From positions 1,984,001 through 2,048,000 of the forward strand of contig OZ024766.1 of NCBI GenBank assembly GCA_964016885.1: a DNA stretch of 64,000 nucleotides. Direction: 5' to 3'. Position numbers and translations under genes: made by a program. Below, in pieces: positions 2,481 through 53,342 of the stretch. The DNA comes from Eledone cirrhosa (lineage: Eukaryota). How positions within the stretch are numbered: position 1 is the first letter of the stretch; every line of letters begins with the position of its first letter. The notes under the pieces are model-generated. The model searched no databases. It was not told the DNA's origin and worked only from the letters and a program-made list of their open reading frames with translations.

Positions 2481-2562
2481 TTGATGTTCAGATTAAAGAG
2501 AGGTGTGCAATAAATTAGTTAATTATTTGATATTTATTCATTAATATCAAACAAGGAACAAG

Positions 2563-3644: not shown

Positions 3645-3689
<45 letters not shown>

Positions 3690-8695: not shown

Positions 8696-8736
<41 letters not shown>

Positions 8737-9530
8737 CATACATATATATATACATATATATATACATGCGTACATACATACATATATATATATGTATTCG
8801 ATATATATTTATCTTTATCGTTATCGAGACCTCGTTGGATTTTAATCTTCACATTTATTATTACTATATGTATATAAATATATATATTCGTATATATATA
8901 AATATATATACATACATCTATATATATGGTGGCTGCCAACTCATTTTCGAGTACGGCCACTACTTTATATCCATGTAGGAGAACCCCTACCGATGCGCTG
9001 AACGAGTGTGAGTTTTCAGTCCAGCCAGCGACGTGAAAACTCTGGTGCAAACAGTACACTTCTGACAATTATTGACACATAGTGGTGGGCCCATGGTACC
9101 ATGTGACGACAAGTGCAGAGAGATCTCCAGATATAAAGCAATGCCTGTGCCGTGAAGCTTTTATAGTGAGCAAAGGCACTGCACAAAGCCAGTCCCACTC
9201 TCTTAACCAAGATGATATTTACCAAAAAGAAGGACAAGTCAACATCATTGGATACCATCAGGGTTGCAGGTGTTATATCAGAGTTTTCCTTCTCCTAGAA
9301 TTCTGCCTTGACAAAGGCTAAGGGGTCATCTCTCCCGGATATGTATGTATATATACATACATACATACATACATATTCAATCATTAGTAATAAAAACACG
9401 AATTCCCTTCGTCGTAACCGACGGAGTGCCATACTCTCTCTGTATTTATATCACGGCACAGGCATTGCTTTATATCTGGAGATCTCTCTGCACTTGTCGT
9501 CACATGGTACCATGGGCCCAGCACTATGTA

Positions 9531-18200: not shown

Positions 18201-21200
18201 CACCACACCACACCACACTACACACCACCACACCGCACCACTACGCCACACCACACCACACCACACTACACACCACACCACACCACACTACACACCACCA
18301 CACCACACCACTACGCCACACCACACCACACTACACTACACCACACTACACTACACCACACTACACCGCACCGCACCGCACCGCACCGCACCGCACCGCA
18401 CCGCACCACACCACACCACACCACACCACACCACACCACACCACACCACACCACCACTACGCCACACCACACCACACTACACCACACTACACTACACCAC
18501 ACCGCACCGCACCGCACCGCACCGCACCGCACCGCACCGCACCGCACCGCACCGCACCGCACCGCACCGCACCGCACCGCACCGCACCGCACCGCACCGC
18601 ACCGCACCGCACCGCACCGCACCGCACCGCACCGCACCGCACCGCACCGCACCGCACCGCACCGCACCGCACCGCACCGCACCGCACCGCACCGCACCGC
18701 ACCACTACGCCACACCACACCAGACAGTCATCGGTCATATTATTTTCGTTCTAGGACTACTTTGTTGACCGTCTGGTGAAACGAACACACAAACTGCGGA
18801 ACGACATCGCGATGTACGACGCCCAGTATAAACTACAGTCGGATGAAACAAAGAACATCCGGACCATTCTCCATGATGCTGAAATACAACTGTCGGTACG
18901 TATGTGGGGTCACCGGCGTCATTTAGTATCTATTTTTCTGTATATAAGAGGGATAGGCAATGACTTTCATTAGAAATATGGTATCAAAGGTTTAAAGTTT
19001 TTATATTTACCGACAAACCTTTGTTAAGTTATGTTCTATGTATGGTAATGAAATAGCGAAAACAGCTGTGGACATGTCCTAACTGAGTGTCTGTCTGTCT
19101 GTCTCTTTGTTAGTTGATTAACCAAGAAAAAGATCGAATCTACCACAACTGGTGCAACAGTATCTATGGAATGAGGAAGAGAGATGAGGCTTATTCTGCG
19201 GCATTAGACGCTGTCAAGTAAGTATTGTGGTATGTGTGGTATGCTGGGTGCTTTTTTCTGTGTCCTTCACATGTCTACTTTACAGTGTGGGCTGAGTGCT
19301 TTTTTCTGTGTCCTTTACATGTCCACTTTACAGTGTGGGCTGGGTGCTTTTTTCTGTGTCCTTTACATGTCCACTTTACAGTGTGGGCTGGGTGCTTTTT
19401 TCTGTGTCCTTCACATGTCTACTTTACAGTGTGGGCTGGGTGCTTTTTTCTGTGTCCTTCACATGTCTACTTTACAGTGTGGGCTGGGTGCTTTTTTCTG
19501 TGTCCTTCACATGTCTACTTTACAGTGTGGGCTGGGTGCTTTTTTTCTGTGTCCTTTACATGTCCACTTTATATATATATGTATAGTTATGGTAACCATA
19601 TATATCATCATCATCATCATCATCATCGTTTAACGTCCATCTTCCACGCTTGCATGGGTTTGGACGGGAGTTTTCCCACTTGAGGCAAGAGTGGTTGTCT
19701 GGCGGGTTTTCTACGGCTGGATGCCCTTCCTAACAGCAACCACGTTTACAGTGTGGACTGGGAGGTTTTGACCGTGTTACCTACACGACCACATTACAGC
19801 GTGGACCATATATATATATATATACACTATATATGATGTTGTCCAAGGGAAAGGCAATGTTTGATACAGCTTGGCACCAGTGACATGACAACTTATTTCT
19901 ACAGCTGAGTAAACTGGAGCAATGTGAAATAAAGTGTCTTGCTCAAGGAAACAACACATCACCCGGTCTGAGAATTGAACTCACAACCTTTCGATTGCAA
20001 GCCCAATGCTCTAACCACTAAGCCATGTGCCTTCATAACACTAACACCCAACCATTCTTCCCTTTGTAGGCAGCTCCAGGAGCAAATGATGTTTATTAAA
20101 CGTGACATAAATGGGTACAAGAAGTCCACTACGGAAGTCCAGCAGGAGAACGAGAAGCTGACACAAACACACAAGAGAAGCCAGCATGATGTGGATGTGA
20201 TTAAGGAACAACTCACTAAGACTGTACAAATGTATGAAGACCTGAAGATGCAGTATGGAAAATATACGAGATTGCTGAAGGAAACTGAAGAGATACTGAT
20301 GACAACAAACGCTGTGAGTTGTTATTGTTGTTGTTGGTGGTGGTGCTGGTGCTGGTGGTGGTGGTGGTGGTGTGGTGGTGCAGTGTTACTGTTATTGGTG
20401 TGGTGGTGGTGTTACTGCTTATTCCAAAGATTCACCACAACTTCTTTCCATAACATGGAACTGGGAAATTATAACACATAACCCTATCAGTGAAGCCCTT
20501 TAGTATAGGCCAACTGGGAAACTATAACATACATAACCTTATCAGTGAAGCCCTTTAGTATAGGTCAACTGGGAAACTATAACATATATAACCACATCAG
20601 TGAAGCCCTTTAGTATAGGTCAACTGGGAAACTATAACATATATAACCCTATCAGTGAAGCCCTTTAGTATAGGTCAACTGGGAAACTATAACATATATA
20701 ACCCTATCAGTGAAGCCCTATACGAGCCTGACAGTCCTATACGAGCAAGACAACCATTCTTGCCTCAAGTGGGACAACTCCCGTCCAGACCCATGCTAGC
20801 GTGGAAAATGGACGTTAAACGAAGATGATTTCAGAGCACCAATCCTAATATATATATCATTTCGTCATTTTCGTTTTTTTTACGTCCGCTTTTCCCTGCT
20901 TGCAAGGGTGGGACGGGAACTGATGCTGGCTTGATTTCTACAGCTGGATGCCCTTCCTAACACCAACCTCATTTACAGTGAGTGCTGGGTGCTTTCTTGC
21001 CATGGCACCTCCACGACCACTTTACAGTGGAATGATAGGGACCCCAGTCCCTATCATCTCATTGCTACAGCTGAGTAAACTGGAGCAAGGTGAAATAAAG
21101 TGTCTTGTTCAAGGAAACAACACATCACCCGGTCTGAGAAAATTGAACTCACAACCTTTCGATTGCAAGCCCAATGCTCTAACCACTAAGCCATGTGCCT

Positions 21201-28123: not shown

Positions 28124-31100
28124 ATGTGTGACATGTATCCCAGTACAACCTGTCTCATGGTCGGGTCGTTGGCGACTAAACTGGCAACCCCACCAAGGTT
28201 TCTTGGTGAGGAGGGTGACTTTGGACATCCTGCAGGACTAAAAACAAAACCTGTCAAAGGGCAAAGGAGCTCTTAAGAGTCAATGGCCATCCAAAATCAC
28301 CGGGAGAGATGACCCCTTAGCCTTTGTCAAGGCAGAATTCTAGGAGAAGGAAAACTCTGATATAACACCTGCAACCCTGATGGTATCCAATGATGTTGAC
28401 TTGTTCTTCTCTTTGGTAAATATCATCTTGGTTAAGAGAGTGGGACTGGCTTTGTGCAGTGCCTTTGCTCACTATAAAAGCTTCACGGCACAGGCATTGC
28501 TTTATATCTGGAGATCTCTCTGCACTTGTCGTCACATGGTACCATGGGCCCAGCACTATGTGTCAATAATTGTCACAGCTGTAGTGTTTGTACCAGAGTT
28601 TTCAAGTCGCTGGCTGGACTAAAAAGTCACACTCGTTCAGCGCATCGCTAGGGGTTCTCCTACATGGATATAAAGTAGTGGCCGTACTCGAAGACGAGTT
28701 GGCAGCCACCATGTATGTGTGTATGTGTGTATGTGTGTGTGTGTATGTAGTTTCCATGTGATCCAACCAACCAATAAACCTTATTTACACATGTGTCTGT
28801 TTATGTGTTGCCAGCCAACAGATAATGTTGATGGAGAGAAAGATTCAACTACTGAAAGAGACCCGTACTGCTGTCGACGCTGACTTCCAGGAAGGGGAGA
28901 TAAGGTCGATGAAGACCGAGATCCACAGGATGGAAATGAGGTACAGCCAATTGATGAGGCAACAGAACTTGATGGTGCAAGATACAGAGAGGTTCTTGTC
29001 AAGGTAAGGACCGGGAATGGGGTGGAGAAGAGGCAAGTGACACATTTGTGATCATTTATATATGAACCGGTTGCAGTCTTCATATCTTTGATTGCCTTAC
29101 TTACTACACTGCTGCTCACTTGTACTGCTGGCCCCTCGATAGGGTGCGCTTGGGGTAGGGTCTCTTCTTCCCAAGCATTCTCCTCATTTAGTAATCTATC
29201 ATAATGGCTCTTCCACGCATCTTTCTTCTCGGCACTTGTGAGGGCAAGCTCACCTTTATCATTCCGGATACATTTCTCTCCAATGACATCACAATTCTCT
29301 CTGACACACTGCCTCGCAATTTTGAACACCTCCTGTTTCTGGTCCTCACATTGCAAAACATGCTTGAATTTTTTATCCTCCACTTCCCTTCTAGCTAAGT
29401 ATACTTGTCGCCTAGCTTCCATCCTGGTCTCTATGTAATGTACCCTGCTTTCCCCATTCTTCCATTGTTTCCATGCCTGTCTCTTAGCCTTAACTGCCTC
29501 ATCTACCTTATTGTTCCATCACCATATCACCCTCATTCTCCCTGTACTTTTGCTCCCTGTACTCTCGTCCGTCGCCTTTAGTAAGTTATTTTTTAGAAAC
29601 TCCCAGTGCTCTTCTACATTGAATGTCTCTATCTGTTCTTCTTTATTGTCAAGTAAGATATCTTTAAATCTGTTACTGTCTTTCAGCTTCCAGATCTTTC
29701 TTCTCCAGGTTGCCATCTGTTTCCAATTTCGTCTAGATTTGACGGTGAGGTAGCTGACAACTAAGTTATGTTGGGAGGTACATTCCTCACAAGGGAAAGC
29801 CTTTGTGTTTACGACCGTCCATCTGTCACGTCCTCTGATGAGGATAAAATCTATCTGACTAGAATTCTCCCCTGATCTATAGGTGATCAGATGGTTGTCG
29901 GGTTTTTTGAAGTTTGCATTACATATCGACATGTCATTGGCGTCGCAGAATTCTAGAAGCCTGAAGCCTTCTTCATTTCTATGTGCCAACCCCATGTCAT
30001 TGGTGCCAAGCTGTATTTCATGTCATTGCCTTTCCCCTGGACAACATCGGTGGCATGGAGAGGTGACTGGTGTTCCACAAAACAAACCTTGCCCAGGCTT
30101 GTACCTCGGAAGGAAACTTTCTAGGGGCAAAACCATGGTCATTGGTGACTGAGTGGGGCCATAAGCAGATGGAATATGAATGGGCAATATACACACTACA
30201 CATGCTATTATATATATATAAAACATACTCATAATATTATGTTGTTGCTGTTTACAGACGAGATAACATCGATATACTGGGGGATGTGCAACAGTCAAGG
30301 AAGACCCTTACTAAAGGTAAACTGACGAAACTGCTGAATGAAGCAAAGAAACAAATTAAAATGACTCAGAAGGTGAGATATGACATGTCTGTCTGTGTGT
30401 CTGTCTGTGTGTACGTCTGCTTTTCCCTGCTTGCAAGGGTGGGACGGGTCCTATTCAGCACAGCATCTCTCCACTTGTCACGGCCCCTCGTCATCTCCAC
30501 CGTGAGCTTCAACAATCTGAGGTCTGCTCTCACCACCTCCGCCCATGTTTTTCGTGGTCTTCCTCGACAGCGTCTTCCTTCTACTGGCATTTCTTGGCAC
30601 TTCTTTATCCAGCAGTCATCCTCCATGCACATCACATGTCCATACCATCTCAGCCTCCTCTCCCACACACTACAACTTATCCCTCATATACCCAGTTTCT
30701 CTCTCACCACATCACATGTCCATACCATCTCAGTCTTCTCTACCACACACCACAACTTATCCCTCTTATACCCAGTTTCTCTCTCAACACATCACATGTC
30801 CATACCATCTCAGTCTTCTCTCCCACACACCACAACTTATCCCTCTTATACACAGTTTCTCTCTCAACACATCACTTGTCCATACCACCTCAGTCTTCTC
30901 TCCCACACACCACAACTTATCCCTCTTATACACAGTTTCTCTCTCAACTCATCACATGTCCATACCATCTCAGTCTTCTCTCCCCTCTTATGCAGATTTA
31001 ATCACGTAAGAACACTCCATGTCAGTTGTATCAACCCAGCTTAGAAGAGGCGATAAACTGTAAATGGGGTTACCATGTGGGAAATCAAATGTTAGACAGA

Positions 31101-31601
31101 AGTTACATAATCATATTTATCAATTATACGTATTTCTGTGGCAGCAGCATGGAGCTGTGTAAATATATCTGTGTTTATGTATTTTTCAGGAAACCTTTGA
31201 GCTCTCCAATGAAATGCATTCTGTCCAACAAAGGCAGAATATATGTGGTGATGAACTTGAATCTCTTCAGATGGACTGTGGCAAACTGAAGTCTAAACTT
31301 GACCAGACAACTGATATCATTGAGAAGAACAGCAATGTAAAATACAGGGTAAATATGTCTCTTTGTACAGCTTTCTTTCTGTTTCATGTATCTGTATATA
31401 TATATATATGGAGAAAAAATTTACGAAATGGAGATGCGGGTATATAGAATTTATTAGGTAACAATTGTTTCTATAGTGTATGAGTTACCTATACCTCGCT
31501 ATTTGAATAATACACAAATATTATCAAAAACCGAAAGTACACTGTAAGCCAACACACCATGTCATCAGACCCTCTGTATTAGAATGATATGAAAATATTA
31601 T

Positions 31602-31639
<38 letters not shown>

Positions 31640-32019
31640 AAATACGTAGTTAAGAAAGCCACAACAATGCAGGGGGAAATTTCGAGGTAGGAAGTGAATG
31701 ATAGATAGGAGAAACAGGAGAAAGTGAAAATTGAGAGAGACAAAGATGAAAACAAAACAAAGGTAGAAGGGTTACCGTAGTGGAGATTTAATCCCAATAT
31801 TTCGGGCTCACGCCCATCAACGGGGGAAGATTCCAAAAGGGGGGGAACAGGCCAAGCGGAGAAAGTTGTGATGTCGTTAAGACAGGAATGCCACTTTCTC
31901 CTGTTTCTCCTATCTATCATTCACTTCCTACCTCGAGATTTCCCTCTGCATTGTTGTGGCTTTCTTAACTACGTATTTTACACATTTCACAATGCTTCAA
32001 GCAAACTTTAACACCCTCT

Positions 32020-32051
<32 letters not shown>

Positions 32052-32280
32052 ACGTAGGTCCCGGGTTGAGTCAGGGATAACCACAGTAAGTAAGGTACTC
32101 AATACATGGCAGAGTAAAAAATACCATCCTACCCCCCCAAAATCCCCCCCAGCCACCACCCCTCCCTCACCACTACCTAAATGTATAAATACCAGAACTT
32201 AATATGACACCCAGCTTCCTGAAGATTTCATCTGAATGAAACAGTACTAGTCCTGTAGAAGCTCCTTCTATAAAATAAAA

Positions 32281-32312
<32 letters not shown>

Positions 32313-32402
32313 GTATATGTATATATATATACAGAGGCGGGCAAGCAATGTTGCAGCATGCTACTTTGTCTGGCCCCGCTTTTATATATAAAATGTTATA
32401 TA

Positions 32403-32446
<44 letters not shown>

Positions 32447-33402
32447 GTTTGTATTTGTAAAGCCAAAACAATGCAGGTAAGGACATAGAATATAAATACA
32501 AATGCAAAAGATATTGTTGACAATTAGTCTTTTACTTTAAATTTATTTAAATGTCCTTAATTTTCGAGATAATATCTCTTCTTCGGAGGGAAGTAAAGGG
32601 GTTAAACCAGTCTTCTAAATAGCTTGCCAAGTCAAGTGTTCTAAATAGCTTGACTTGGCAAGCTATTTAGAAGACTGGTTTAACCCCTTTACTTCCCTCC
32701 GAAGAAGAGATATTATCTCGAAAATTAAGGACATTTAAATAAATTTAAGGTAAAAGACTAATTTTCAACAATATCTTTTGTATTTGTATTTATATTCTAT
32801 GTCCATACCTGCATTGTTTTGGCTTTATTATACACATACAAACGTTTATACCTCATTACACAATGCTTCAAGTGAACTATAACTATATATATATATATAT
32901 ATAAAAATTGAGGACCCCGAGGGCTGAGCTCTGACTGTTTCAGCTCTACTACCCCAACTATTGAGTACTCTGGTGAGTAATGGTCTAACTGGCTTTTTAC
33001 CGCCATCTCTCTATTTATCTATATCTACCTCTATCTCTGCAGAAAATGTACGAGCTGGTGCAACAGCAGTACCGCAGCAAATACTACCAGCAGCTGAAGG
33101 ACGGCAAATACAGGATGTTGTGCAGGAGCAAGGCATCGTTTGATTTGGAATACAGGGTGCAAGTTAACAACATACAGACTCTTACGGCTATAGTGGAGCA
33201 GATATGTCAGGAGTACCCCGGCGTACACAAGATTCTCTCAAAGCTGTTGCAGCTCCTGCATAGTCTGGTGATGAAGTACCCATTGCCCGATGAAGAAGAA
33301 GATGAGGAGGGTGATGACGATGATGATGATGACAATGATGAGGCTGAGACTGCAGGGGCAGGGGCAGGGGCAGGGAAGGGAAATATTGGGGAGAAGTTTT
33401 AA
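9750..33402 (+). CDS. CCDC40: Coiled-coil domain-containing protein 40, spliced gene span (15 exons found; 5' end unresolved)
   Basis: Exons 9750-9833, 16310-16529, 17757-17914, 18755-18895, 19114-19217, 20070-20313, 21235-21417, 22214-22459, 23256-23469, 24372-24541, 26760-26851, 28815-29003, 30258-30372, 31190-31348, 33043-33402. All have AG/GT boundaries, phases chain correctly and the total is 2679 nt ending in TAA. Peptides are colinear with my recollection of vertebrate CCDC40 (PRMVKFQ~[17 protein letters not shown]~LGVNLYEVQQ, KKQDYFVD~KKQDLYVD, ELGPM~[17 protein letters not shown]~EIRAMKGEIHRM). Confidence 0.93.
10108..16252. repeat. Intronic purine-rich minisatellite: ~60-bp unit with variable (GA)n, plus a ~120-bp variant
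   Basis: GGAGAGGAGACAGAGGTGGGGAATGGAA(GA)nGCTGGTGGTGTTGTTGTGTGT tandem array. Confidence 0.97.
16310..16529 (+). CDS. CCDC40: CCDC40 exon (TKPLK...[12 protein letters not shown]...NRKH)
   Basis: ttgcag| ... |gtgagt, 220 nt, phase 0-1. Confidence 0.92.
16532..17307. repeat. G-rich minisatellite GGGGTGTACAGTGGT(G)n
   Basis: Tandem array directly after the donor at 16530. Confidence 0.95.
17345..17535 (+). mobile_element. RTE-clade LINE fragment (post-RT region)
   Basis: [16 protein letters not shown]...MLHGSETW...[11 protein letters not shown]. Confidence 0.8.
17536..17715 (-). mobile_element. Fragment of CRE-like LINE restriction-like endonuclease region
   Basis: [14 protein letters not shown]...[16 protein letters not shown] resembles the LEP.GL.R.DG.RPD motif; homologous to 23815-24135. 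Confidence 0.65.
17757..17914 (+). CDS. CCDC40: CCDC40 exon ([10 protein letters not shown]...ETDQKKQ)
   Basis: ttgcag| ... |gtgagt, 158 nt, phase 1-0. Confidence 0.92.
17922..18721. repeat. Compound pentanucleotide microsatellite (CACTA/CACCA/CCGCA)n
   Basis: Direct reading; fills nearly the whole intron. Confidence 0.97.
18755..18895 (+). CDS. CCDC40: CCDC40 exon (DYFVDRL...AEIQLS)
   Basis: ttctag| ... |gtacgt, 141 nt, phase 0-0. Confidence 0.92.
19114..19217 (+). CDS. CCDC40: CCDC40 exon ([13 protein letters not shown]...GMRKRDEAY)
   Basis: tgttag| ... |gtaagt, 104 nt, phase 0-2. Confidence 0.9.
19243..19571. repeat. 48-bp minisatellite, about 7 copies
   Basis: TTTACAGTGTGGGCTGGGTGCTTTTTTCTGTGTCCTTCACATGTCTAC repeats. 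Confidence 0.95.
19830..20033 (-). mobile_element. tRNA-derived SINE (head and body)
   Basis: Minus strand: A box TGGCTTAGTGG, B box GAGTTCAATTC, then CCTTGAGCAAGACACTT core. Confidence 0.8.
20070..20313 (+). CDS. CCDC40: CCDC40 exon (QLQEQ...YKKS...ENEKL...TTNA)
   Basis: ttgtag| ... |gtgagt, 244 nt, phase 2-0. Confidence 0.92.
20459..20720. repeat. ~55-bp minisatellite, about 5 copies
   Basis: AACTGGGAAACTATAACATATATAACCCTATCAGTGAAGCCCTTTAGTATAGGTC repeats. Confidence 0.93.
20881..21200 (-). mobile_element. Full-length tRNA-head SINE with RTE-derived 3' tail
   Basis: A/B boxes at the 21200 end; tail CCTTGCAAGCAGGGAAAGCGGACGTAA shared with the RTE 3' end at 30413-30448; near-identical copy at 26203-26521. 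Confidence 0.85.
21235..21417 (+). CDS. CCDC40: CCDC40 exon (NKNGMEDTL...KSAKY...TEHL)
   Basis: ctgcag| ... |gtgagt, 183 nt, phase 0-0. Confidence 0.9.
22214..22459 (+). CDS. CCDC40: CCDC40 exon ([10 protein letters not shown]...NRKQ...LINRAG)
   Basis: gtccag| ... |gtgagt, 246 nt, phase 0-0. Confidence 0.9.
22485..23061 (-). mobile_element. Same SINE family with an internal ~49-bp tandem expansion and (GAT)n tail
   Basis: Homologous to 20881-21200; segment repeated at 22605-22930. Confidence 0.82.
23096..23188 (-). mobile_element. Two Helitron-like 3' termini in (TA)n
   Basis: Minus strand CCCGAGCAACGCCGGG hairpin followed by TCATTCTGCTAG|T (second copy lacks the final G). Confidence 0.55.
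23256..23469 (+). CDS. CCDC40: CCDC40 exon (GIELGPM...WLQKQ...QKKIRTD)
   Basis: long pyrimidine tract + tacag| ... |gtgagt, 214 nt, phase 0-1. Confidence 0.93.
23521..23649 (+). mobile_element. SINE body fragment (octopod-type)
   Basis: GTGGCTGAGTATTCCACAGACACG...GGAGATTCAGC...GGCTGGCCCTTTGAATTACAGG recalled as a common octopus SINE segment; related piece at ~60181-60215. Confidence 0.55.
23815..24135 (+). mobile_element. Degenerate CRE-like LINE C-terminal (RLE) fragment
   Basis: Frameshifted VGLDRGDG..., [22 protein letters not shown]...[12 protein letters not shown]. Confidence 0.65.
24135..24330. repeat. (CAC)n-type imperfect microsatellite
   Basis: Direct reading. Confidence 0.9.
24372..24541 (+). 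CDS. CCDC40: CCDC40 exon (KINKQ...KLNDL...EKDFIITLK)
   Basis: ttacag| ... |gtattt, 170 nt, phase 1-0. Confidence 0.9.
24785..25097 (+). mobile_element. Second tRNA-derived SINE family, partial tandem duplication
   Basis: A box TGGCAGTATCGG, B box GAGTTCAAATCC, core TTGCCTTTCATCC...GGGGTC...ATAAA.TACCAG present twice; another fragment on the minus strand at ~39795-39892. Confidence 0.75.
25234..25916. repeat. Palindromic ~38-bp minisatellite with internal orientation flip
   Basis: ACCACCTCTGTTGGTCAACAGAGGTGGT units; linker switches from AGCAACACTGCT to AGCAGTGTTGCT near 25660. Confidence 0.95.
25970..26029 (+). ncRNA. Minimal type I hammerhead ribozyme motif
   Basis: Stem I TATTTTGT/ACAAAATA, core CTGAAGA, stem II AGG/CCT, GAAA, 2-bp stem III with palindromic ATAT loop, AUA cleavage triplet. 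Confidence 0.65.
26203..26521 (-). mobile_element. tRNA-head SINE, copy of 20881-21200
   Basis: Near-identical sequence with (GAT)n tail at 26178-26201. Confidence 0.85.
26760..26851 (+). CDS. CCDC40: CCDC40 exon ([20 protein letters not shown]...VET)
   Basis: tatcag| ... |gtgagt, 92 nt, phase 0-2. Confidence 0.9.
26952..27810. repeat. 49-bp minisatellite, about 17 copies
   Basis: TTACAGTGTGGACTGGGAGCTTTTTTACCGTGTCTCCTACATGACAACC. Confidence 0.96.
28138..28711 (+). mobile_element. Non-coding RTE-related retroposon (5'UTR-like region plus 3' hairpin) in (TATG)n; parent family of the block amplified in 1-9528
   Basis: Contains TAGGAGAAGGAAAACTCTGA, which I recall from RTE 5' UTRs; terminal hairpin AGTGGCCG..ACTCG-AAGA-CGAGT..CAGCCACC; 28301-28711 matches copies such as 6894-7303. 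Confidence 0.6.
28815..29003 (+). CDS. CCDC40: CCDC40 exon ([12 protein letters not shown]...EIHRM...FLS)
   Basis: tgccag| ... |gtaagg, 189 nt, phase 2-2. Confidence 0.93.
29070..29995 (-). mobile_element. RTE-clade LINE fragment (APE endonuclease C-terminus and linker), disrupted
   Basis: [12 protein letters not shown]...ITYRSG..SQIDFIL...SQHNLVV, then WW/AWKQWK linker and VSKAIKDMK; frameshifted. Confidence 0.88.
30258..30372 (+). CDS. CCDC40: CCDC40 exon (RDNIDIL...KMTQK)
   Basis: ttacag| ... |gtgaga, 115 nt, phase 2-0. Confidence 0.9.
30413..30705 (-). mobile_element. RTE LINE 3' end
   Basis: RRLRWYGHV...[22 protein letters not shown]...RDKWR. Confidence 0.88.
30628..30985. repeat. 80-bp tandem repeat derived from the RTE fragment (~4.5 copies)
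   Basis: CACATCACATGTCCATACCATCTCAGTC... at 30628, 30708, 30788, 30868, 30948. Confidence 0.93.
31190..31348 (+). CDS. CCDC40: CCDC40 exon (ETFELS...NVKYR)
   Basis: tttcag| ... |gtaaat, 159 nt, phase 0-0. Confidence 0.9.
31457..31571 (-). ncRNA. Degenerate type I hammerhead motif with long stem II
   Basis: Minus strand GGT-CTGATGA-cATGGTGTG...TACACTATa-GAAAC-AATT-GTT-ACC. Confidence 0.45.
31639..32019 (+). mobile_element. Small inverted-repeat element with 3' tail (Penelope pLTR-like relic)
   Basis: Arms 31639-31726 and 31892-31980, tail containing CACAATGCTTCAAG, flanked by (TA)n; internal hammerhead-like motif. Confidence 0.7.
31792..31827 (-). ncRNA. Minimal hammerhead-like motif (variant core)
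   Basis: TCCC-CCGTTGAT-GGGC GTGA GCCC-GAAATATT-GGGA; A6 is mutated. Confidence 0.5.
32213..32263 (+). ncRNA. Type I hammerhead ribozyme motif
   Basis: Stem I AGCTTC/GAAGCT, CTGAAGA, weak stem II TTC/GAA, GAAAC, stem III ACAG/CTGT with ACTAGT palindrome, GUA cleavage after 32257. Confidence 0.7.
32445..32882 (+). mobile_element. ~400-bp palindromic element with 3' tail; each arm carries a minimal hammerhead-like motif (32555-32589 -, 32696-32730 +)
   Basis: ~190-bp arms, 12-nt spacer at 32637-32648, tail CACAATGCTTCAAG; motif CCT-CCGAAGAA-GAGAT ATT ATCTC-GAAAATTA-AGG. Confidence 0.72.
32908..33006 (+). mobile_element. Diverged collapsed relic of the Penelope-like element termini
   Basis: GGACCCCGAGGGCTGAGCTC..GTTTC followed by CTCTACTACC..TATTGAGTACT.TGGTG..ATGGTC, matching 34390-34418 and 38847-38890. 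Confidence 0.7.
33043..33402 (+). CDS. CCDC40: CCDC40 last coding exon (KMYELV...KDGKY...QEYP...acidic tail, stop)
   Basis: ctgcag| acceptor, open to TAA at 33400-33402. Confidence 0.92.
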   Translation, partial: KMYELVQQQYRSKYYQQLKDGKYRMLCRSKASFDLEYRVQVNNIQTLTAIVEQICQEYPGVHKILSKLLQLLHSLVMKYPLPDEEEDEEGDDDDDDDNDEAETAGAGAGAGKGNIGEKF

Positions 33403-34378: not shown

Positions 34379-34390
34379 GGAACCAGTAAG

Positions 34391-34484
34391 ACCCCGACAG
34401 CTGAGCTCAAGCCGTTTCGACGGCTAATTCTGGACTAAATGAAAATTTATCCTGGTATTTAAATAGCCGATCTTCTCAAGGGGT
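34391..34484 (-). ncRNA. Type I hammerhead ribozyme (U3-A8 core), inverted copy
   Basis: Reverse complement of 38732-38825. Confidence 0.8.
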
Positions 34485-35607
34485 AATTCCATATATGGTC
34501 AAAGTGATTTTCAAAAATCAGTAGTAATTCTGTGGTTGCAAATTAGTAGGGGAGATGGTGGCTAAACCTGCCAGTAGGAGAAAGAGGGGAGGGGTGGAGT
34601 AGCCCCAATCAAGCGTTTGTAGTGCCAGCTACAGCTGGGCATGAGGTCAAAGAAGATACAGGGGAGGGGGAGGGGGAGGAAGTCGGAACGGTAGGTAGAA
34701 CAATGGGGGGTAGAAATATATAGGAAAGAAAAAATACTGAGAGTGAAGAAAAGCAAATAAGTGTAAAGAAAAACAAATGAGTGTAAAGAAAAAAGTAAAG
34801 TAAATTAAATTCTACGACCTAGGTCTCAGGCTATTGTTAGGCTAGAATAAATAAATAAATAAATAAAGAAAGAAAGAAGTAAAGAAATAAATAAAGAAAT
34901 AACGAAATAAGTAAAAGAACTAGGTGGGACGGATTAGGCGAGGACCCTTTTAAGAGGTATAAGTACGTAAATGATACGGTGACGGGTCAACAAAAGGGGC
35001 CAAAATACTAAAGAGACTACCACGAAATAAACAATAAAGGTTTCCATCCCGGGCACAATTCCAGCAACCACCCAGTTCAGCAAAGTGAACTAATACGAGA
35101 TAATAATTCTGAGTCCCGAGAAAAATATATACTAATGCTAACTCTAAAAGATCTAAAACAATGAAAGTTCGTACGAAGTAAAGGTAGAATACGGAAGAAT
35201 AAATTCAGAATCCACCCCGCCCAAAAGAAAAGCGAAAAAAGAAATACTGAAACGAAAAAATAAGGCATAAGTGCCACTAAGAAATATAGAGGGCACAGAG
35301 AATAGTGGGAGCGGTCGGAAAAAGGGGACAAGTATCCGGGGTCTAAACCAACTGCTATAAAGGGCGGAGTCCGCCAAATCTATCCTAGACTAGGGGAGGG
35401 GGTGGGGGTACAAAGGCTACAAGGGGCCAAAGGGCAGCCTCGGGTGGGCGAGAAAAGACGCCGACAAAGGAGAAGAGCTGGGGTAGAAGGACTAAGGAGA
35501 GAGGGGGGAAGGAAGGAAATAAAGGAAGCGATAAAAGAATACAAAGAAGATCTTACGTCTCCCTTGGCAAGCAGGGGTTACCCATTGCAAAATCGGCAAG
35601 TGGGGTG

Positions 35608-36155
35608 TTATAGCCCTAGTCTACCCCCCGGGTCATTATGGGGTTTGAGGGCGAGGTAAGTCCTACGCAATCTATGTTTACATGCAGTAACCAGTTCATC
35701 TTTCTTGTTTAGGAGTTGGTCCGTCGAAAACAGCATTTGTAAAGTTTCCTCCGAGCATAAATTGCACGGACGGCGTCCTCCCGTGTAAGAATTGGCTATG
35801 GACAGTAATTTCCAAGTGAGATCATAGGTGATGTTGTTGTCCTTGAGGTCCCATATGTGGCCCGAAAGTGTAGTGGCGTGACGCCGGGCCGGGTTTCGGA
35901 AGGTATGTCTATGTTGGTATAGCCGGGTCTTGAAGTCACATGCGGTAAGTCCTATATAGGCTTTGTTGGAGGTATCCGTCCTCACGTTGCACTGGTAGAT
36001 CACATTACGGTCTCTGCATCTATTGTCGAGTGGGCAAATAGATCTATCCGGGCAGTTACACCTCCTGGTCGGTTCTCCACTGCTATTTAGGTTATTTCTG
36101 CCATCGGGGTTGAGTTTTTTGTTGTTAGAGGAGACGATGTTTTGTGCGAAGTTGG
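35608..36155 (-). pseudogene. Inverted duplicate of the GIY-YIG domain coding region
   Basis: ORF 35608-36192(-) is nearly identical to the C-terminus of the + ORF (WKLL vs WRLL). Confidence 0.85.
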
Positions 36156-37591
36156 AGGATAAACGAGAAACTAAATTCATACAGTTCGACATAGAGAGCT
36201 ACTATGCTTCAATCACCTTACCGCTACTTACTGCCGCCTTGGACTTCGCCGAAACACTTGTGCCCATCACCGACCAGGAAAGAAAAATCATCCTCCACGC
36301 CAGGAAGACAGTCTTACTCTTTGACGACTCTAAATGGATAAAAAGAGCTCCCGACTCACCCTTCGACGTCAGCATGGGCGCCACGGATTCGGCGGAGGTC
36401 ACAGATCTTATAGGATTATTCCTAATAGCCAAACTCACTGATATGTTTCCTGCATTCGGTGGTGGATTGTACCGTGATGATGGGCTCCTTACCCTTAAAG
36501 GGTACAACCCCAGTAGTACAGATCGGGTCCGGAAACAATTAATCAGATTCTTCCGCGACTGGGGATTTAAAATAACCCTACAAACGTCCCTGACCAGAGT
36601 AAACTTCCTGGACGTGACCCTCGACCTCGAAAACGACCTGTACTACCCATACAGGAAACCTAATGACAATCTGCACTACATCCACCGCCGATCAAACCAT
36701 CCTAGGAACATCACAAACAACCTGGTCAAAAACATCTCCCTCCGCATATCCCGTTTGTCAGCTAATGAGCGGATATTCGATGAACATGCGCCTTATTACA
36801 ACCAGGCCCTCAAGCGGAGTAGTTTCCGGGAGGAAATATCCTACTGTCCAGCTCCCATTAGCGGAACCAGCAGGAGACACCGCCGCTCACGCAATGTAAC
36901 ATGGTTCAATCCTCCCCACAACGCAGAGGTGACAACTCCCATCGGGAAACTATTCTTTAGGCTCATTGAAAAACACTTCCCATTACAACACCGCTACCAC
37001 AACATAATTAACAAAAATACCATCAAACTCTCTTACAGCACTACACCCAACTTCGCACAAAACATCGTCTCCTCTAACAACAAAAAACTCAACCCCGATG
37101 GCAGAAATAACCTAAATAGCAGTGGAGAACCGACCAGGAGGTGTAACTGCCCGGATAGATCTATTTGTCCACTCGACAATAGATGCAGAGACCGTAATGT
37201 GATCTACCAGTGCAACGTGAGGACGGATACCTCCAACAAAGCCTATATAGGACTTACCGCATGTGACTTCAAGACCCGGCTATACCAACATAGACATACC
37301 TTCCGAAACCCGGCCCGGCGTCACGCCACTACACTTTCGGGCCACATATGGGACCTCAAGGACAACAACATCACCTATGATCTCACTTGGAGATTACTGT
37401 CCATAGCCAATTCTTACACGGGAGGACGCCGTCCGTGCAATTTATGCTCGGAGGAAACTTTACAAATGCTGTTTTCGACGGACCAACTCCTAAACAAGAA
37501 AGATGAACTGGTTACTGCATGTAAACATAGATTGCGTAGGACTTACCTCGCCCTCAAACCCCATAATGACCCGGGGGGGGGGGGGGGGTAG
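36156..37591 (+). CDS. Penelope-like reverse transcriptase + GIY-YIG endonuclease (5'-truncated, uninterrupted)
   Basis: RT motifs FDIESYYASI, MGATDSAEV, YRDD, NFLDVTL, thumb SNHP; CNC..CPL...C linker; VIY...YIG, R...H, CNLC..E, LLN. Confidence 0.93.
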
Positions 37592-38731
37592 ACTAGGGCT
37601 ATAACACCCCACTTGCCGATTTTGCAATGGGTAACCCCTGCTTGCCAAGGGAGACGTAAGATCTTCTTTGTATTCTTTTATCGCTTCCTTTATTTCCTTC
37701 CTTCCCCCCCCCTCTCTCCTTAGTCCTTCTACCCCAGCTCTTCTCCTTTGTCGGCGTCTTTTCTCGCCCACCCGAGGCTGCCCTTTGGCCCCTTGTAGCC
37801 TTTGTACCCCCACCCCCTCCCCTAGTCTAGGATAGATTTGGCGGACTCCGCCCTTTATAGCAGTTGGTTTAGACCCCGGATACTTGTCCCCTTTTCCCGA
37901 CCGCTCCCACTATTCTCTGTGCCCTCTATATTTCTTAGTGGCACTTATGCCTTATTTTTTCGCTTCAGTATTTCTTTCTTCGCTTTTCTTTTGGGCGGGG
38001 TGGATTCTGAATTTATTCTTCCGTATTCTACCTTTACTTCGTACGAACTTTCATTGTTTTAGATCTTTTAGAGTTAGCATTAGTATATATTTTTCTCGGG
38101 ACTCAGAATTATTATCTCGTATTAGTTCACTTTGCTGAACTGGGTGGTTGCTGGAATTGTGCCCGGGATGGAAACCTTTATTGTTTATTTCGTGGTAGTC
38201 TCTTTAGTATTTTGGCCCCTTTTGTTGACCCGTCACCGTATCATTTACGTACTTATACCTCTTAAAAGGGTCCTCGCCTAATCCGTCCCACCTAGTTCTT
38301 TTACTTATTTCGTTATTTCTTTATTTCTTTCTTTACTTCTTTCTTTCTTTCTTTCTTTATTTATTTATTCTAGCCTAACAATAGCCTGAGACCTAGGTCG
38401 TAGAATTTAATTTACTTTACTTTTTTCTTTACACTCATTTGTTTTTCTTTACACTTATTTGCTTTTCTTCACTCTCAGTATTTTTTCTTTCCTATATATT
38501 TCTACCCCCCATTGTTCTACCTACCGTTCCGACTTCCTCCCCCTCCCCCTCCCCTGTATCTTCTTTGACCTCATGCCCAGCTGTAGCTGGCACTACAAAC
38601 GCTTGATTGGGGCTACTCCACCCCCTCCCCTCTTTCTCCTACTGGCAGGTTTAGCCACCATCTCCCCTACTAATTTGCAATCACAGAATTACTACTGATT
38701 TTTGAAAATCACTTTGACCATATATGGAATT

Positions 38732-38825
38732 ACCCCTTGAGAAGATCGGCTATTTAAATACCAGGATAAATTTTCATTTAGTCCAGAATTAGCCGTCGAA
38801 ACGGCTTGAGCTCAGCTGTCGGGGT
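38732..38825 (+). ncRNA. Type I hammerhead ribozyme with U3-A8 variant core
   Basis: Stem I ACCCC/GGGGT; core TTGAGAA; stem II GA(T)CGGCTA/TAGCCGTC; GAAA; stem III ACGGC/GCTGT with TGAGCTCA palindrome; GUC cleavage after 38820. Confidence 0.82.
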
Positions 38826-38959
38826 CTTACTGGTTCCTATTACCCACTCTACTACCTCAAGTATTGAGTACTTTGGTGCGTTATGGTCCACCTGGTTCCT
38901 TACCACATTTCCTTCGTTATATATATATATATATGTGTGTGTGTATGTGTATATATATG

Positions 38960-42689: not shown

Positions 42690-45600
42690 TTTAGTCATTT
42701 TAGTCATTTATGATGCCGCTTTAGCCATTATTGAGTTATTTTCGTCCTTTATGATGCCGTTTTAGCCAATTTAGAGTCATTTTAGTCATTTATGATGCAG
42801 TTTCATCTATTAAAAAGTAATTTTATTCATTTATGATACCGTTTTAGTCATTTTAGCCATTTTAGTGTCCTTTTAGTCATTTATGATGCCGTTTTAGCCA
42901 CTTAAGATTCATTTTAGTCATTTGAAAGTGACTCTAAAATGGCTAAAACGGCATCAGAAATGACTAAAATGACTCTTAAATGGCTAAAACGGCATCATAA
43001 AAGAATAAAATGACTTAAATGGAGAAAACTGCTTTATAAATGACTAAAATTACTCTAAAACTGCTAAAACGGATTCAGAAATGAAGAGAATGACATTAAA
43101 ACGGCATCATGAATGACTAATATGACTCTAAAACGTGCTAAAATTGCATCATAAATGAAGAAAATGAAACTAAAATGGCATCATCAATGACAAAAACGAT
43201 TCTGAAATGGCTAAAACGGCATAAAAATTGGCTAAAAGGGGCACCAAAAATGGCTAAAATCGCTAAAACAGCATCATAAATAACTAAAATAACTCTAAAA
43301 TGTTTAAAACGGCATCATAAATGACTCAAATAACTGTAAATGGCTGAAACAGCATCCCAAATGACTATAATAATTATAAAACTTGCTAAAACTACATCAT
43401 AAATGACTCTAAAACGGCAACATAAATTGATAAATTGGCTAAAACGGCATCATAAATGACTAAAATGACACTAAAATGGCTAAATCGGCATCATAAATGA
43501 AGAAAATGTCACTAAAACAGCATCATAAATGACGAAAATGACTCTAAAAAGAATAAAACGGCGTCATAAATGTCTGAAATGACTATAAAATGGGTAAAAC
43601 GGCATTATAGATTTTAGTCATTTATGATGCCGTTTTAGCCATTTATGGTGTCGTTTTCGCCATTTTAGAGTCATTTATGGTGTCGTTTTCGCCATTTTAG
43701 AGTCATTTATGATGTCGTTTTAGCTATTTTAGAGTCATTTTAGTCATTTATGGTACCGTTTTCGCCATTTTAGAGTCATTTTAGTCATTTATGATGCCGT
43801 TTTAGCTGTTTTAGAGTCACTTTAGTCATTTATGATGCCGTTTTAGAGTCATTTATGGTGCCGTTTTCGCCATTTTCGAGTCATTTCGGTCAGTTATGAT
43901 GCCGTTTAGCCATTTTAGAAGATCAGTTTAGCCATTTATGATGCCGTTTTAGCTATTTTAGAGTCATTTTAGTCATTTATGGTGCCGTTTTCGCCATTTT
44001 AGAGTCATTGTAGTCATTTATGGTGCCGTTTTCACCATTTTAAAGTCATTTTAGTCATTTATGATGCCGATTTAGCTATTTTACAGTCATTTTAGTCATT
44101 TATGATGCCGTTTTAGGTATTTTAGAGTCATTTTAGTAATTTGACTCTAAAATGGCTAAAACGGCATTATAAATGACTAAGACGTCATCATAAATTATTA
44201 AAACGTCATCATAAATGACTAAAATGCATAAAACGGCATCATGAATGACTAAAATGACTCTAAAATCGCGAAAAAAGGCATCATAAATGAGAAAAATGGC
44301 TAAAACGTCATCATAAAGGACTAAAACGTCACCATAAAGGACTAAAATGGCTAAAACGGCATCATAAATGGCTAAAACGGCATCTTAAAGGATTAAATTG
44401 GCTAAAAATGCATCATAAATGAGTAAAATGGCTAAAACGTCATCATATATGACTAAAACGTCACCATAAATGACTACAATGCCTAAAACGTCATCATAAA
44501 AGACTAAAACGTCACCATAAATGACTAAAATAGCTAAAACGGCATCATAAATAACTAAAATGACACTAAAATAGCAAAAATGGCATGATAAATTACTAAA
44601 ATGACTCTAAAATGGCTAAAACGGCATCATAAATGAGTAAAATGGCTAAATCGTCATCATAAATGACTAAAACGTCATCATAAATGACTAAAATGGCTAA
44701 GCAGCATCATAAATGACTAAAATGGCTAAAACGGCATCATAAATGACTAAAATGACTCAAAAATAGCTAAAACGGCATCATAAATGACTAAAACGTCATC
44801 ATAAATGAGTAAAATGGCTAAAACGTCATCATGAATGATTAAAGGTCATCATAAATGACTAAAATAACCCTAAAAGGGCTAAAACGGCATCATGAATGGC
44901 TAAAATGACTCTAAAATTGCGAAAAAAGCATCATAAATGAGTAAAATGGCTAAAACGGCATCATAAATGGCTAAAATGTCTAAGACCGCATCGTAAATCA
45001 TTAAATAGGCTAAAAAGGCATCATAAATGAGTAATATGGCTAAAACGTCATCATATATGACTAAAACGTCATCATGAATGATTAAAAGGTTTCCAAAATG
45101 GCTAAAATGGCATCATAAATGTGTAAAATGACTCTTAAATCAGCTAAAACATCATTATAAATGACTAAAATGGCTAAAACGGCATCAGAAATGACTAGAA
45201 TGACAACAAAATGGAGAAAAACGGCATCATAAATGACTAAAATGTCTCAAAATGGTTAAAACGGCATCTTAAATGACTCAATGACTCTAAAATAGCTAAA
45301 ACGTCATTAGGAATGACTAAAATGGCTCAAACACCATCATAAATGACTAGAATGACTCCAAAATGGCTAAAACGGCATCATGAATGACTAAAATAACTCT
45401 AAAGTGGCTAAAACGTCATTATAAATGACTAAAATGGCTAAAACGGCATCTAAAATGACTCTTAAATAGCTAAAAACGTCATTATAGATTACTAAAATGT
45501 CTAAAACGGCATAATAAATAGCTATTTAAGAGTCATTTTAGTCATTTATGATGCCGTTTTATCCATTTTGGAGTCATTTTAGTCATTTATGATGCCGTTT

Positions 45601-48600
45601 TAGCCATTTTAGTCATTCCTAATGACGTCTTAGCTACTTTAGAGTCATTTGAGTCATTCAATTTGCTGTTTTATCCATTTTGGAGTCATTCTAGTCATTT
45701 ATGATGCCGTTTTAGACATTTTAGTCATTTTAATGACGTTTTAGCTATTTTAGAGTCATTTTAGTCATTCATGATGCCGTTTTTAGCCATTTTGGAGTTT
45801 TTCTAGTCATTTATGTTGCCGTTTTAGCCATTTTAGTCATTTATAAGACGTTTTAGCCACTTTAGAGTCATTTGAGTCATTCATGATGCCGGTTTAGCCA
45901 TTTTGTAGTCATTCTAGTCATTTATGACGCCCTTTTAGCCATTTTATTCATTCCTAATGACGTTTTAGCTATTTAAGAGTCATTTCAGTCATTTAAGATG
46001 CCGTTTCAACCATTTTTGGAGTCATTTTAGTCATTTATGATGCCGTTTTAGCTACTTTGAGTCATTCTTGTGATTTATGATGCAGTTTTAGCCATTTTAG
46101 TCATTTATAATGACGTTTTAACTACTTAAGAGTCATTTTAGTCATTTATGATGCCATTTTATCCATTTGGAGTCACTTTAGTCATTTATGATGCCCGTTT
46201 TAGCCATTTTAGTCATTTCTAATGACGTTTTAGCTATTTTAGAGTCATTTGAGTCATTTAATTTGCCGTTTTAGCCAATTTGGAATCATTCTAGTCATTC
46301 ATGATGTCGTTTTAGCCATTTTAGTCATTGATAATGACGTTTTAGCCACTTTAGAGTCATTTTAGTCATTCATGATGCTGTTTTAGCCAATTTGTAGTCA
46401 TTCTAGTCATTTATGACGCCATTTTAGCCATTTTAGTCATTCCTAATGACGTTTTAGCCATTTTTAGAGTCATTTGAGTCATTTAAGATGCCGTTTTACA
46501 GTTTGGAGTCATTATAGTCATTTATGATGCCGTTTTACCCATTTTAGTCATTGATAATGATGTTTTAGCCACTTTAGAGTCATTTTAGTCATTCATGATG
46601 CTGTTTAGCCAATTTGTAGTCATTCTAGTCATTTATGACGCCATTTTAGCCATTTTAGTCAATCCTAATGACGTTTTAGCCATTTAGAGTCATTTGAGTC
46701 ATTTAAGATGCCGTTTTAACCATTTTGGAGTCATTATAGTCATTTATGATGCCGTTTACCCATTTTAGTCCTTGATAATGATGTTTTAGCCACTTTAGAG
46801 TCATTTTAGTCATTCATGATGCTGTTTTAGCAAATTTGTAGTCATTCTAGTCATTTATGACGCCATTTTAGTCATTCCTAATGACGTTTTAGTCATTTGA
46901 GTCATTTAAGATGCCGTTTTAACCATTTTGGAGTCATTCTAGTCATTTATGATGCAATTTTAGCCATTTTAGTCATTCCTAATGACGTCTTAGCTACTTT
47001 AGAGTCATTTGAGTCATTCAATTTGCTGTTTTAGCATTTTGGAGTCATTCTAGTCATTTATGATGCCGTTTTAGCCATTTAGTTATTTATAAAGACGTTT
47101 TAGCCACTTAGAGTCATTTGAGTCATTCATGATGCCGTTTAGCCATTTTGTAGTCATTCTAGTCATTTATGACGCCGTTTTAGCCATTTTATTCATTCCT
47201 AATGACGTTTTAGCTATTTAAGAGTCATTTCAGTCATTTAAGATGCCGTTTCAACCATTTTGGAGTCATTTTAGTCATTTATGATGCCGTTTTAGCTACT
47301 TTGAGTCATTCTTGTGATTTATGATGCAGTTTTAGCCATTTTAGTCATTTATAATGACGTTTTAGCTACTTAAGAGTCATTTTAGTCATTTATGATGCCA
47401 TTTTATCCATTTTGGAGTCACTTTAGTCATTTATGATGCCGTTTTAGCCATTTTAGTCATTTCTAATGACGTTTTAGCTATTTTAGAGTCATTTGAGTCA
47501 TTTAATTTGCCGTTTTAACCCATTTTGGAATCATTCTAGTAATTCATGATGTCGTTTTAGCCATTTTAGTCATTGATAATGACGTTTTAGCCACTTTAGA
47601 GTCATTTTCGTCATTCATGATGCGGTTTTAGCCAATTTGTAGTCATTCTAGTCTTTTATGACGCCATTCTAGCCATTTTAGTCATTCCTAATGATGTTTT
47701 AGCCATTTTAGAGTCATTGAGTAATTTAAGATGCCGTTTTAACCATTTTGGAGTCCATTCTAGTCATTCATGATGCCGTTTAGCCATTTTAGTAGTTCCT
47801 AATGACGTTTTAGCTATTTTAGAGTCATTTGAGTCATTTAAGATGCCGTTTTAACCATTTTGGAGTCATTCTAGTCATTTATGATGCTGTTTTTACCATT
47901 TTAGTCATTTATAATGACGTTTTAGCTATTTAAGAGTCATTTTAGTCATTTATGATGCCGTTTTATCTATTTGAAGTCATTTTAGTCATTTATGATGCCG
48001 TTTTAGCCATTTTGGAGTCATTCTAGTCATTTATGATGCCGTTTTAGCCATTTTAGTCATTTATAATGTCGTTTTAGCTATTTAAGAGTCATTTTAGTCA
48101 TTTATGATGCGTTTTAACCATTTTAGTCATTTATAATGACGTTTTAGCTATTTAAGTGTCATTTTAGTCATTCATGATGCCGTTTTATCCATTTTGAAGT
48201 CCATTTTAGTCATTTATGATGCCGTTTTAGCCATTTTAGTCATTTCTGATGACGTTTTAGATATTTTAGAGTCATTTGAATCATTTAAGATGCCGTTTTA
48301 ACCATTTTGGAGACATTTTAGTCATTTATGATGCCGTTTTAGCATTTTAGTCATTCCTAATGACGTTTTAGCTATTTAAGAGTCATTTTAGTCATTTATG
48401 ATGCCGTTTTAACCATTTTGGAGTCATTCTAGTCATTCATGATGCCGTTTTAGCAATTTTAGTCATTCCTAATGACGTTTTAGCTATTTTAGAGTCATTT
48501 GAGTCATTTAAGATGACGTTTTAACCATTTTGGAATCATTCTAGTCATTTATGATGCCGTTTTACCCATTTTAGTCATTTATAATGACGTTTGAACTATT

Positions 48601-53142: not shown

Positions 53143-53342
53143 NNNNNNNNNNNNNNNNNNNNNNNNNNNNNNNNNNNNNNNNNNNNNNNNNNNNNNNNNN
53201 NNNNNNNNNNNNNNNNNNNNNNNNNNNNNNNNNNNNNNNNNNNNNNNNNNNNNNNNNNNNNNNNNNNNNNNNNNNNNNNNNNNNNNNNNNNNNNNNNNNN
53301 NNNNNNNNNNNNNNNNNNNNNNNNNNNNNNNNNNNNNNNNNN
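53143..53342. other. Assembly gap (200 N)
   Basis: Run of N. Confidence 1.

Follow-up and report, generated by a model that had tools for sequence, protein, structure and literature searches.

Introduction

The closest described counterparts of the sequences considered here are Penelope-like elements and the hammerhead motifs found with them. Nearly all families of the Hydra clade are reported to insert in (TA)n (PMC8557442), and head-to-head copies with a tail on one side only are a published Penelope-like pattern (PMC8557442, PMC3846280). Two internal RT start sites have been shown in vitro (PMC11167929), and in the same paper the Anolis motif is reported to require the element protein, to be dispensable for insertion in vitro, and to show no RNA-seq ends at its site. 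Metazoan minimal hammerheads (min-HHRs) are described as giving no cleavage as monomers and weak cleavage as dimers (PMC4209133), the promoter of D. virilis Penelope is described as internal and TATA-less (PMC2377424), and recently active Penelope-like families have already been reported in Octopus vulgaris (PMC13282606). Non-LTR retrozymes are short non-coding sequences with type I hammerheads found in animal genomes, and have been proposed to derive from pseudo-LTRs (bioRxiv 10.64898/2026.07.22.740005).

The window we analysed is a 64,000-nt stretch of the Eledone cirrhosa genome (contig OZ024766.1, positions 1,984,001–2,048,000 of the forward strand) in which several hammerhead-like motifs lie within one intron. 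We consider it very probable that five abundant Penelope-like families have left 3' ends in this intron, truncated at the 5' side or joined head-to-head, and that the hammerheads are likely passengers in the CCDC40 transcript. The families otherwise fit the known Penelope-like kind; what is new, and a testable mechanistic lead, is the clustering of the 5' starts of their short copies.

Results

The intron and its host gene

Along the plus strand of the window, Octopus CCDC40 aligns as 15 separate pieces, the last two falling at 31181–31348 and 33031–33258, and an exon at 28816–29004 shares 84–87% identity with Octopus and Argonauta CCDC40. Because these last two pieces flank 31349–33042 and the final exon matches the C-terminus of the solved CCDC40 chains in the PDB, this GT..AG, phase 0 interval is the last coding intron of CCDC40, as had been claimed earlier. 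It should be noted that Pfam gave no significant match with the CCDC40 exons, that the penultimate exon alone had no match in the PDB, and that a protein search with the last exon found no match, the gene being settled by the PDB sequences together with a further exon.

Only about 40 nt at the 5' flank and 35 nt at the 3' flank of the intron are free of repeats, and the remainder is made up of TA runs and six modules (Table 1). The modules are separated by TA runs as described in an earlier note made from the sequence, but its term "nest" does not apply literally, as they lie side by side and none is nested inside another.

Several further observations were made in passing. The tail of module F contains a CTAAC branch-point-like motif (32975–32990) some 55–60 nt above the 3' splice site, which the host intron may use. 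Two contigs of one sample (X1), possibly the assembly's own, span the host/A and F/host junctions. Elsewhere in the window there is a tandem-repeated unit of about 3.9 kb at 900–9400, upstream of the first mapped CCDC40 exon, and a long AT-rich satellite at 42696–54000 with periods of 21, 32 and 41 nt in both orientations. Two tRNA-like matches in a repeated intronic unit (19968–20025 and 21136–21193, minus strand) are likely heads of a tRNA-derived SINE.

Table 1. Features of the CCDC40 intron and its surroundings (positions within the window).
Feature	Positions	Strand	Description
Penultimate coding exon, CCDC40	31190–31348	+	tblastn of Octopus CCDC40 residues 777–832 onto 31181–31348; splice sites from sequence
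Last coding intron, CCDC40	31349–33042	+	GT..AG, phase 0
Module A	31410–31599	−	5'-truncated 3' end of a Penelope-like family, without tail; from sequence comparison
Hammerhead A	31456–31572	−	Canonical CUGAUGA box, extra base after A9; antisense to pre-mRNA
Module B	31640–32018	both	Head-to-head insertion with 94-nt inverted arms; long arm minus, 31640–31892, without tail
Hammerhead-like motif B	31792–31827	−	Box CCGUUGA (U4C + A6U), extra U, G10.1-C11.1; antisense to pre-mRNA
Module C	32053–32280	both	Inverted 66-nt tail (32053–32118) and sense 3' end (32119–32280)
TATA box	32184–32191	+	29 nt above first base of helix I (32213); putative pseudo-LTR promoter
Hammerhead C	32213–32263	+	CUGAAGA box, GUA triplet, site after 32257; sense to pre-mRNA
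Module D	32332–32396		65-nt piece between TA runs, without hammerhead; unclassified
Module E	32446–32885	both	Head-to-head palindromic insertion; arms 32458–32636 and 32649–32827
Hammerhead E, mirror copy in inverted arm	32555–32589	−	From arm comparison
Minimal hammerhead E, sense arm	32696–32730	+	CCGAAGA box (U4C), extra A, G10.1-C11.1, AAUU palindrome, 3-bp helix I
Module F	32903–33005	stub −	Decayed inverted stub 32903–32941 (hammerhead 3' half) and tail 32942–33005
Last coding exon, CCDC40	33043–33402	+	phmmer against PDB chain 8j07_h3, residues 1063–1134 of 1142, E 2.5e-6
Module G	34379–38918	both	Large 4.5-kb head-to-head Penelope-like insertion just downstream of the CCDC40 stop, outside the intron

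The hammerhead motifs

The earlier note had listed five hammerhead-like motifs in the intron with at least four different sequences, palindromes in each helix III and a half motif at 32910–32941, and all of this is borne out. The five motifs represent four sequences (A, B, C and E) with AATT, ATAT, ACTAGT and AATT as their respective palindromes, and the half motif is the decayed 3' half, on the minus strand, of a hammerhead which is found whole in family G and, with an altered box, in one long copy of family F. As the two E motifs belong to both arms of one insertion, whole motifs occur in four insertions. The canonical CUGANGA box is restricted to A and C, with the U4C change in E and both U4C and A6U in B. 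An extra base after A9 and a G10.1-C11.1 pair are found together in B and E; the extra base is also present in A, but with an A-U pair at 10.1-11.1, and C has a U·U at that place. We had considered reading the box of motif B as TTGATG, but dropped this because a better fit, in agreement with E, is obtained with CCGUUGA and an extra U.

Comparison with shuffled sequence and a check that the modules are not single-copy had both been proposed, and both favour the motifs. A strict descriptor finds four of them (A, C and the two E arms), and of 1000 dinucleotide shuffles 996 gave none and four gave one; a descriptor widened post hoc, once the box of B had been seen, finds all five against a single match in total in 1000 shuffles (999 gave none). 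The hammerhead modules are dispersed repeats, with 246 to 2,631 exact core copies each for A, B, C and E. No hammerhead in the window was matched by Rfam at the gathering threshold, which returned only two tRNA-like matches.

The modules are 3' ends of Penelope-like elements

As judged by sequence comparison, the hammerhead modules derive from protein-coding Penelope-like elements, of which they are the 3' ends, made up of pseudo-LTR and tail. They run on elsewhere into RT-endonuclease ORFs, which agrees with the Penelope origin and the several families proposed earlier, but the further proposal that these families are non-autonomous is not supported, as the hammerhead modules are ends of ORF-bearing elements. 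The hammerhead lies within the pseudo-LTR in the same sense as the ORF in families A, B, E and C, and 13 tandem units of 3.0–3.45 kb with a hammerhead core at both ends were found for A, B and E; no such units were found for C or F. In the window, an inverted 5'-truncated copy with a tail at one end only is seen in B, C, E, F and G, and the two internal RT start sites, at the body end or the tail end, would account for the presence of the tail on just one arm. Identity between the window copies and their best relatives is 96–98% in the parts that were compared.

That one TA tract was targeted repeatedly, as claimed earlier, is supported by the tail ends, of which 65 of 78 (a few counted twice owing to overlapping loci) are followed by (TA)4 within 6 nt compared with 4.4% of random positions; by family, this was the case for 6/6 tail ends in A, 11/14 in C and 9/13 in F. 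The Penelope origin and the TA targeting are right and already known.

Module A shares 98.4% identity with all 29 of the copies fetched, and is likely the youngest of the intron insertions. Its family has 246 exact core copies (reversed-pattern control 0), and in 21 of 29 loci an ORF ends 514–573 nt upstream in the same sense. The 3.0-kb units carry frames, open from stop to stop, of 778 and 784 aa; YRDD and endonuclease motifs can be recognised by eye in the 778-aa frame, and the protein has RWK, DKT, a CxCX5C linker, CxxC and CxH but no CCHH, while Pfam found no match in the family A frames. Hammerhead A has a long helix II (90 nt), a 3-bp helix III with an AAUU loop, and a GUU triplet. We note that the 5' end of the module (31599) lies inside its own TATA box, which is TA-target-like, and that a microhomology join is likely.

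Families B and E are sister families with 55.5% identity between their ORFs. Family B has 1,436 core copies (reversed-pattern control 0), with an open 887-aa frame in one of four units in which RVT_1 scores above the cut-off and GIY-YIG just below it; family E has 2,631 core copies (reversed-pattern control 0) with an open 900-aa frame in one of three units, both domains being above the cut-off. The ORF ends upstream in the same sense in 2/29 loci for B and 5/28 for E, and no relative of the family B ORF was found in the PDB. The short arm of module B (plus strand, 31892–32018) ends in a 40-nt tail holding a likely ORF start codon at 31992–31994, the tail of module E is found on the right side only (32845–32883) with a likely start codon at 32863–32865, and both tails contain the first ATG of the long frame. 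Motif B has a GNRA-capped helix II and an AUAU palindrome. Among the first 100 copies of the family B core listed, U6 is found in 98 and A6 in one, and in this young family the stems are kept, with GUGA/GUAA loop variants, despite the A6U and U4C changes. The recent spread of family B might have taken place with a core that is likely dead.

The arms of module E are 179 nt long and 98% complementary, and the near-perfect hairpins expected in the pre-mRNA are of 179 bp (32458–32827) and, for B, 94 bp (31633–31985, predicted at −189.5 kcal/mol). The E hairpin ends 215 nt above the 3' splice site. Heavy A-to-I editing is well known in coleoids, so these long hairpins are likely to matter more as double-stranded RNA and predicted editing substrates.

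Family C has 2,405 exact core copies (reversed-pattern control 0). A GIY-YIG frame lies upstream in the same sense in four of six long loci and has Hydra-clade endonuclease motifs, though only the endonuclease part was recovered and no intact full ORF was found for this family. Hammerhead C has a 6-bp helix I, the U10.1·U11.1 followed by a helix II of 3–4 bp, and a 4-bp helix III with ACUAGU, and sister families keep helix I by two-sided changes (AGCUUC/GAAGCU to AGAUUC/GAAUCU).

Of the remaining modules, D is a low-copy imperfect palindrome with just one other partial match, and its minus-strand end is similar to the end of the module F tail. Module F is the most altered of the intron modules, motifs of its 3' end and tail recur in family G, and no ORF tied directly to family F was found. 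Module G has a partial RT-endonuclease frame at 35999–37588 (plus strand), for which Pfam found no match, and each of its arms contains a hammerhead with a U3-A8 core (GAAAC at 38798 on the plus and 34418 on the minus strand). A further G stub at about 59740 (minus strand) consists of an inverted tail joined to half a hammerhead, which begins at the family's usual point.

Comparison with described elements

Families A, C and F appear to carry, or be tied to, Hydra-clade motifs, a putative assignment made by motifs and similarity. Family A resembles the Hydra clade as described in PMC8557442 in its RWK, DKT, CxCX5C, CxxC and CxH motifs and in having a single ORF, a unit of about 3.0 kb, a hammerhead and (TA)n targets. 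The linker, CxxC and CxH endonuclease motifs are shared by C and G, with 36–47% identity among them, and F would be placed here by its similarity to G; A and G are assigned by motifs plus weak similarity to B (E ~7e-4). The tails in these families are 66–110 nt long compared with the 30–40 nt described for Penelope-like elements, and C differs further in its U10.1·U11.1 and G in its U3-A8 core. The canonical Neptune/Nematis-type elements are marked by DKG, a cysteine linker and CCHH in the endonuclease. DKG and Cys/His motifs are present in families B and E, but with a CX4CX6-7C linker in place of the plain CX2-5CxxC, and these families differ also in the family-wide U4C (E) or U4C and A6U (B) of their motif cores.

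The motifs are similar to the min-HHRs of PMC4209133 in having a type I topology, a short helix I, a palindromic helix III region and an additional base behind A9, in forming opposite-strand pairs 100–700 bp apart, and in lying mostly in truncated elements. In contrast, helix II of A is 90 nt and helix III of C is 4 bp, and the A6U of B was not found among the variants consulted there. With the non-LTR retrozymes the modules have in common that they are short, lack coding sequence and carry type I hammerheads in an animal genome; retrozymes are head-to-tail tandem monomers without an ORF, whereas each module here is the end of a coding element, present singly or as a head-to-head pair.

Short copies of some families begin at fixed points

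The 5' ends of short copies cluster in some families. Among the first exact matches to the family C core on one contig, many inverted pairs are just 4–21 nt apart. We sampled this family in 60 stretches, which took in the majority of the first 100 matches listed and gave 78 arms, the exact-core sampling missing copies cut inside the core. Of these, 51 begin no more than 8 nt from the core, i.e. in the 5' strand of helix I (36 of the 51 come from 18 two-armed insertions and one, L298, is an internal deletion and not an end), two begin at about 17 and 28 nt, and the others reach at least 57 nt. All 18 of the short inverted insertions examined in this family had a tail on one arm and none on the other.

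The family C start point lies 29 nt below a TATAAATA box, found in the window at 32184–32191. In the sister family C2 this box recurs at 30 nt, although the spacer differs, and the start of 15 out of 18 arms falls at that point. In family G, 24 of 29 arms start around TTAGT, 29 nt below TATTTAAA and inside the ribozyme, and in family F 15 of 16 arms, from short copies, start at the matching TTAGT. No arms of intermediate length were seen among those 18, 29 and 16, and the single long copy of family F has no TATA at −30. Broader clusters are seen in B, with five of 23 arms at 70–77 nt and 13 long, and in E, with nine of 20 at 36–64 nt and 11 long. In family A the spacing of the TATA is the same, yet the ends do not cluster, as one of 23 arms is near and 18 reach at least 176 nt. 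The window copies of B (−72) and E (−48, −52) fall within the clusters of their own families and that of C outside.

If the clusters marked the start of the element, full-length units should begin with an upstream repeat at the same point, but this prediction failed in 12 of 13 units and held in one, so longer templates or second jumps would be needed. Fold-backs at 32216–32218 appear as loose ends in contigs of two other organisms, as a small share and a weak signal. An extra G derived from a cap could not be distinguished by eye from fold-back bases at the junctions. We also considered a splice-acceptor origin for the fixed starts, but no shared upstream exon was seen at the junctions. No report of clustered 5' ends for Penelope-like elements was found in the main texts consulted.

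Motif density in the genome

The wider descriptor found 29 motifs in 40 random 10-kb stretches of the genome compared with 0, 2 and 0 in three shuffles. This is a rate of about 7 motifs per 100 kb, which extrapolates to roughly 200,000 in the 3.0-Gb genome. In the 548 kb flanking family copies there were 86 motifs of other families, roughly double the background, and three other families were found together at one 3-kb locus in one of 174 such loci. The density in the intron is about 40-fold over background and in the top tail, and from these figures we infer that it is dense but not unique, with tens of comparable nests expected. Many further hammerhead families with a palindromic helix III and a long helix II were noticed in the random loci (L183–L222).

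Discussion

From published work, the element endonuclease would nick (TA)n and RT would start at one of two internal RNA sites, the body end or the tail end. To this we would add that copying may often stop early, in C, C2, F and G at one fixed point, below a TATA box, where the RNA probably has its 5' end, and that the cDNA might then fold back or be joined to the target. TA would be left on both sides of each insertion, and pieces would pile up because the tract stays a target. Most stubs keep the hammerhead because it is located within the last 20–130 nt of the body.

Other readings of the intron need to be weighed against one in which it holds ends of coding elements. That the motifs are chance matches in AT-rich sequence might be suggested by the lack of Rfam hits and the departures of B and E from the canonical core, but it is refuted by the shuffle statistics and by the hundreds to thousands of exact copies at the expected site in Penelope repeats, and we give it virtually no credence. 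We also regard it as highly doubtful that the modules are separate non-autonomous families, retrozyme-like or MITE-like, in which short units are copied by Penelope proteins. Short cassettes of near-constant length do dominate C, C2, F and G, truncated copies with a TATA box and tail could yield short RNAs used in trans, and the proposed pseudo-LTR origin of retrozymes would fit, but the junctions of short copies differ individually from insertion to insertion, the same sequence continues into RT-endonuclease ORFs, and no head-to-tail tandem monomers were found in the intron. The suggestion that the two sense motifs, C and that of the sense arm of E, could cut the intron co-transcriptionally is right as to their orientation but doubtful as to cutting, the folds needed being predicted to be rare. 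The E motif is transcribed after its own complement and paired with it in a predicted −304 kcal/mol hairpin, leaving a hammerhead-fold share of about 1e-41, and the fold of C, which is without G10.1-C11.1, is predicted at 2e-4 to 1.5e-3 from secondary structure alone, both being estimates without Mg2+ and tertiary contacts. On these predictions C would be the only real candidate: its box is canonical, its triplet is GUA, helix III has 4 bp, the 6-bp helix I is maintained in sister families by changes on either side, and folding as a monomer is conceivable in principle. Against this, the published metazoan minimal motifs are described as not cleaving as monomers (PMC4209133), the published Anolis motif as protein-dependent and without RNA-seq ends at its site (PMC11167929), and a dimer in cis would need another sense copy of the same family, which the intron does not contain. 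Meaningful cleavage of the intron would therefore be improbable, and cutting during transcription which alters the splicing or output of CCDC40 very unlikely.

The origin of the fixed starts is much less clear-cut. In LTR elements, minus-strand strong-stop DNA is made when RT, primed near the RNA 5' end, runs to that end before a strand jump. We suggest, as a proposal that could equally prove right or wrong, that octopod genomes are strewn with integrated Penelope strong-stop cDNAs, produced by tail-primed RT running off at a TATA-driven start followed by a fold-back or a jump; the start may be the first base of helix I in C and C2 and lie inside the ribozyme in G and F. The inferred likeness is that synthesis primed close to the 5' end of the RNA would reach that end within some 60–200 nt and need a strand jump to continue, and the difference is that priming here would be at a nicked TA target, with failed products fixed in the genome, often as fold-backs. 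Somewhat short of an even chance, in our estimate, is that the start is instead set by RNA or cDNA structure, such as a stall after helix I or a fold-back at the AGCU palindrome, or by a splice acceptor. The C point is the 5' edge of helix I with a 4-nt palindrome, the stops of C, C2, G, F and E are all at or near YAG, and family A has the TATA spacing yet no cluster; a D. virilis intron is also described as ending at helix I (PMC4209133). The TATA-less promoter described for D. virilis Penelope (PMC2377424) likewise weighs against a TATA-driven start. However, G and F stop within the helix II region and not at helix I, the G stop is 29 nt below its TATA-type box, non-inverted C copies joined directly to TA share the start point (L297, L314 and L324), and, along with the absence of a shared upstream exon at the junctions, most C ends keep AG.

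The nest is then ordinary transposon debris, in which an intron core of about 100 nt has grown to 1.7 kb by repeated insertions into a TA tract. If the strong-stop proposal is true, the stub ends would map the transcription start of each family and expose the strand-transfer step in Penelope replication, and the primary transcripts of G and F would begin with only half a ribozyme. Given these half ribozymes and the likely dead core of family B, the hammerheads would then be structural and not catalytic. Family B, with A6U in 98 of the 100 copies listed, provides a test of whether cleavage is needed at all, and the open full-length ORFs of the young families A, B and E are material for assays. 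The sharp, family-specific stub starts below TATA boxes could give a direct handle on how Penelope-like elements rebuild their terminal repeats and come to leave head-to-head copies.
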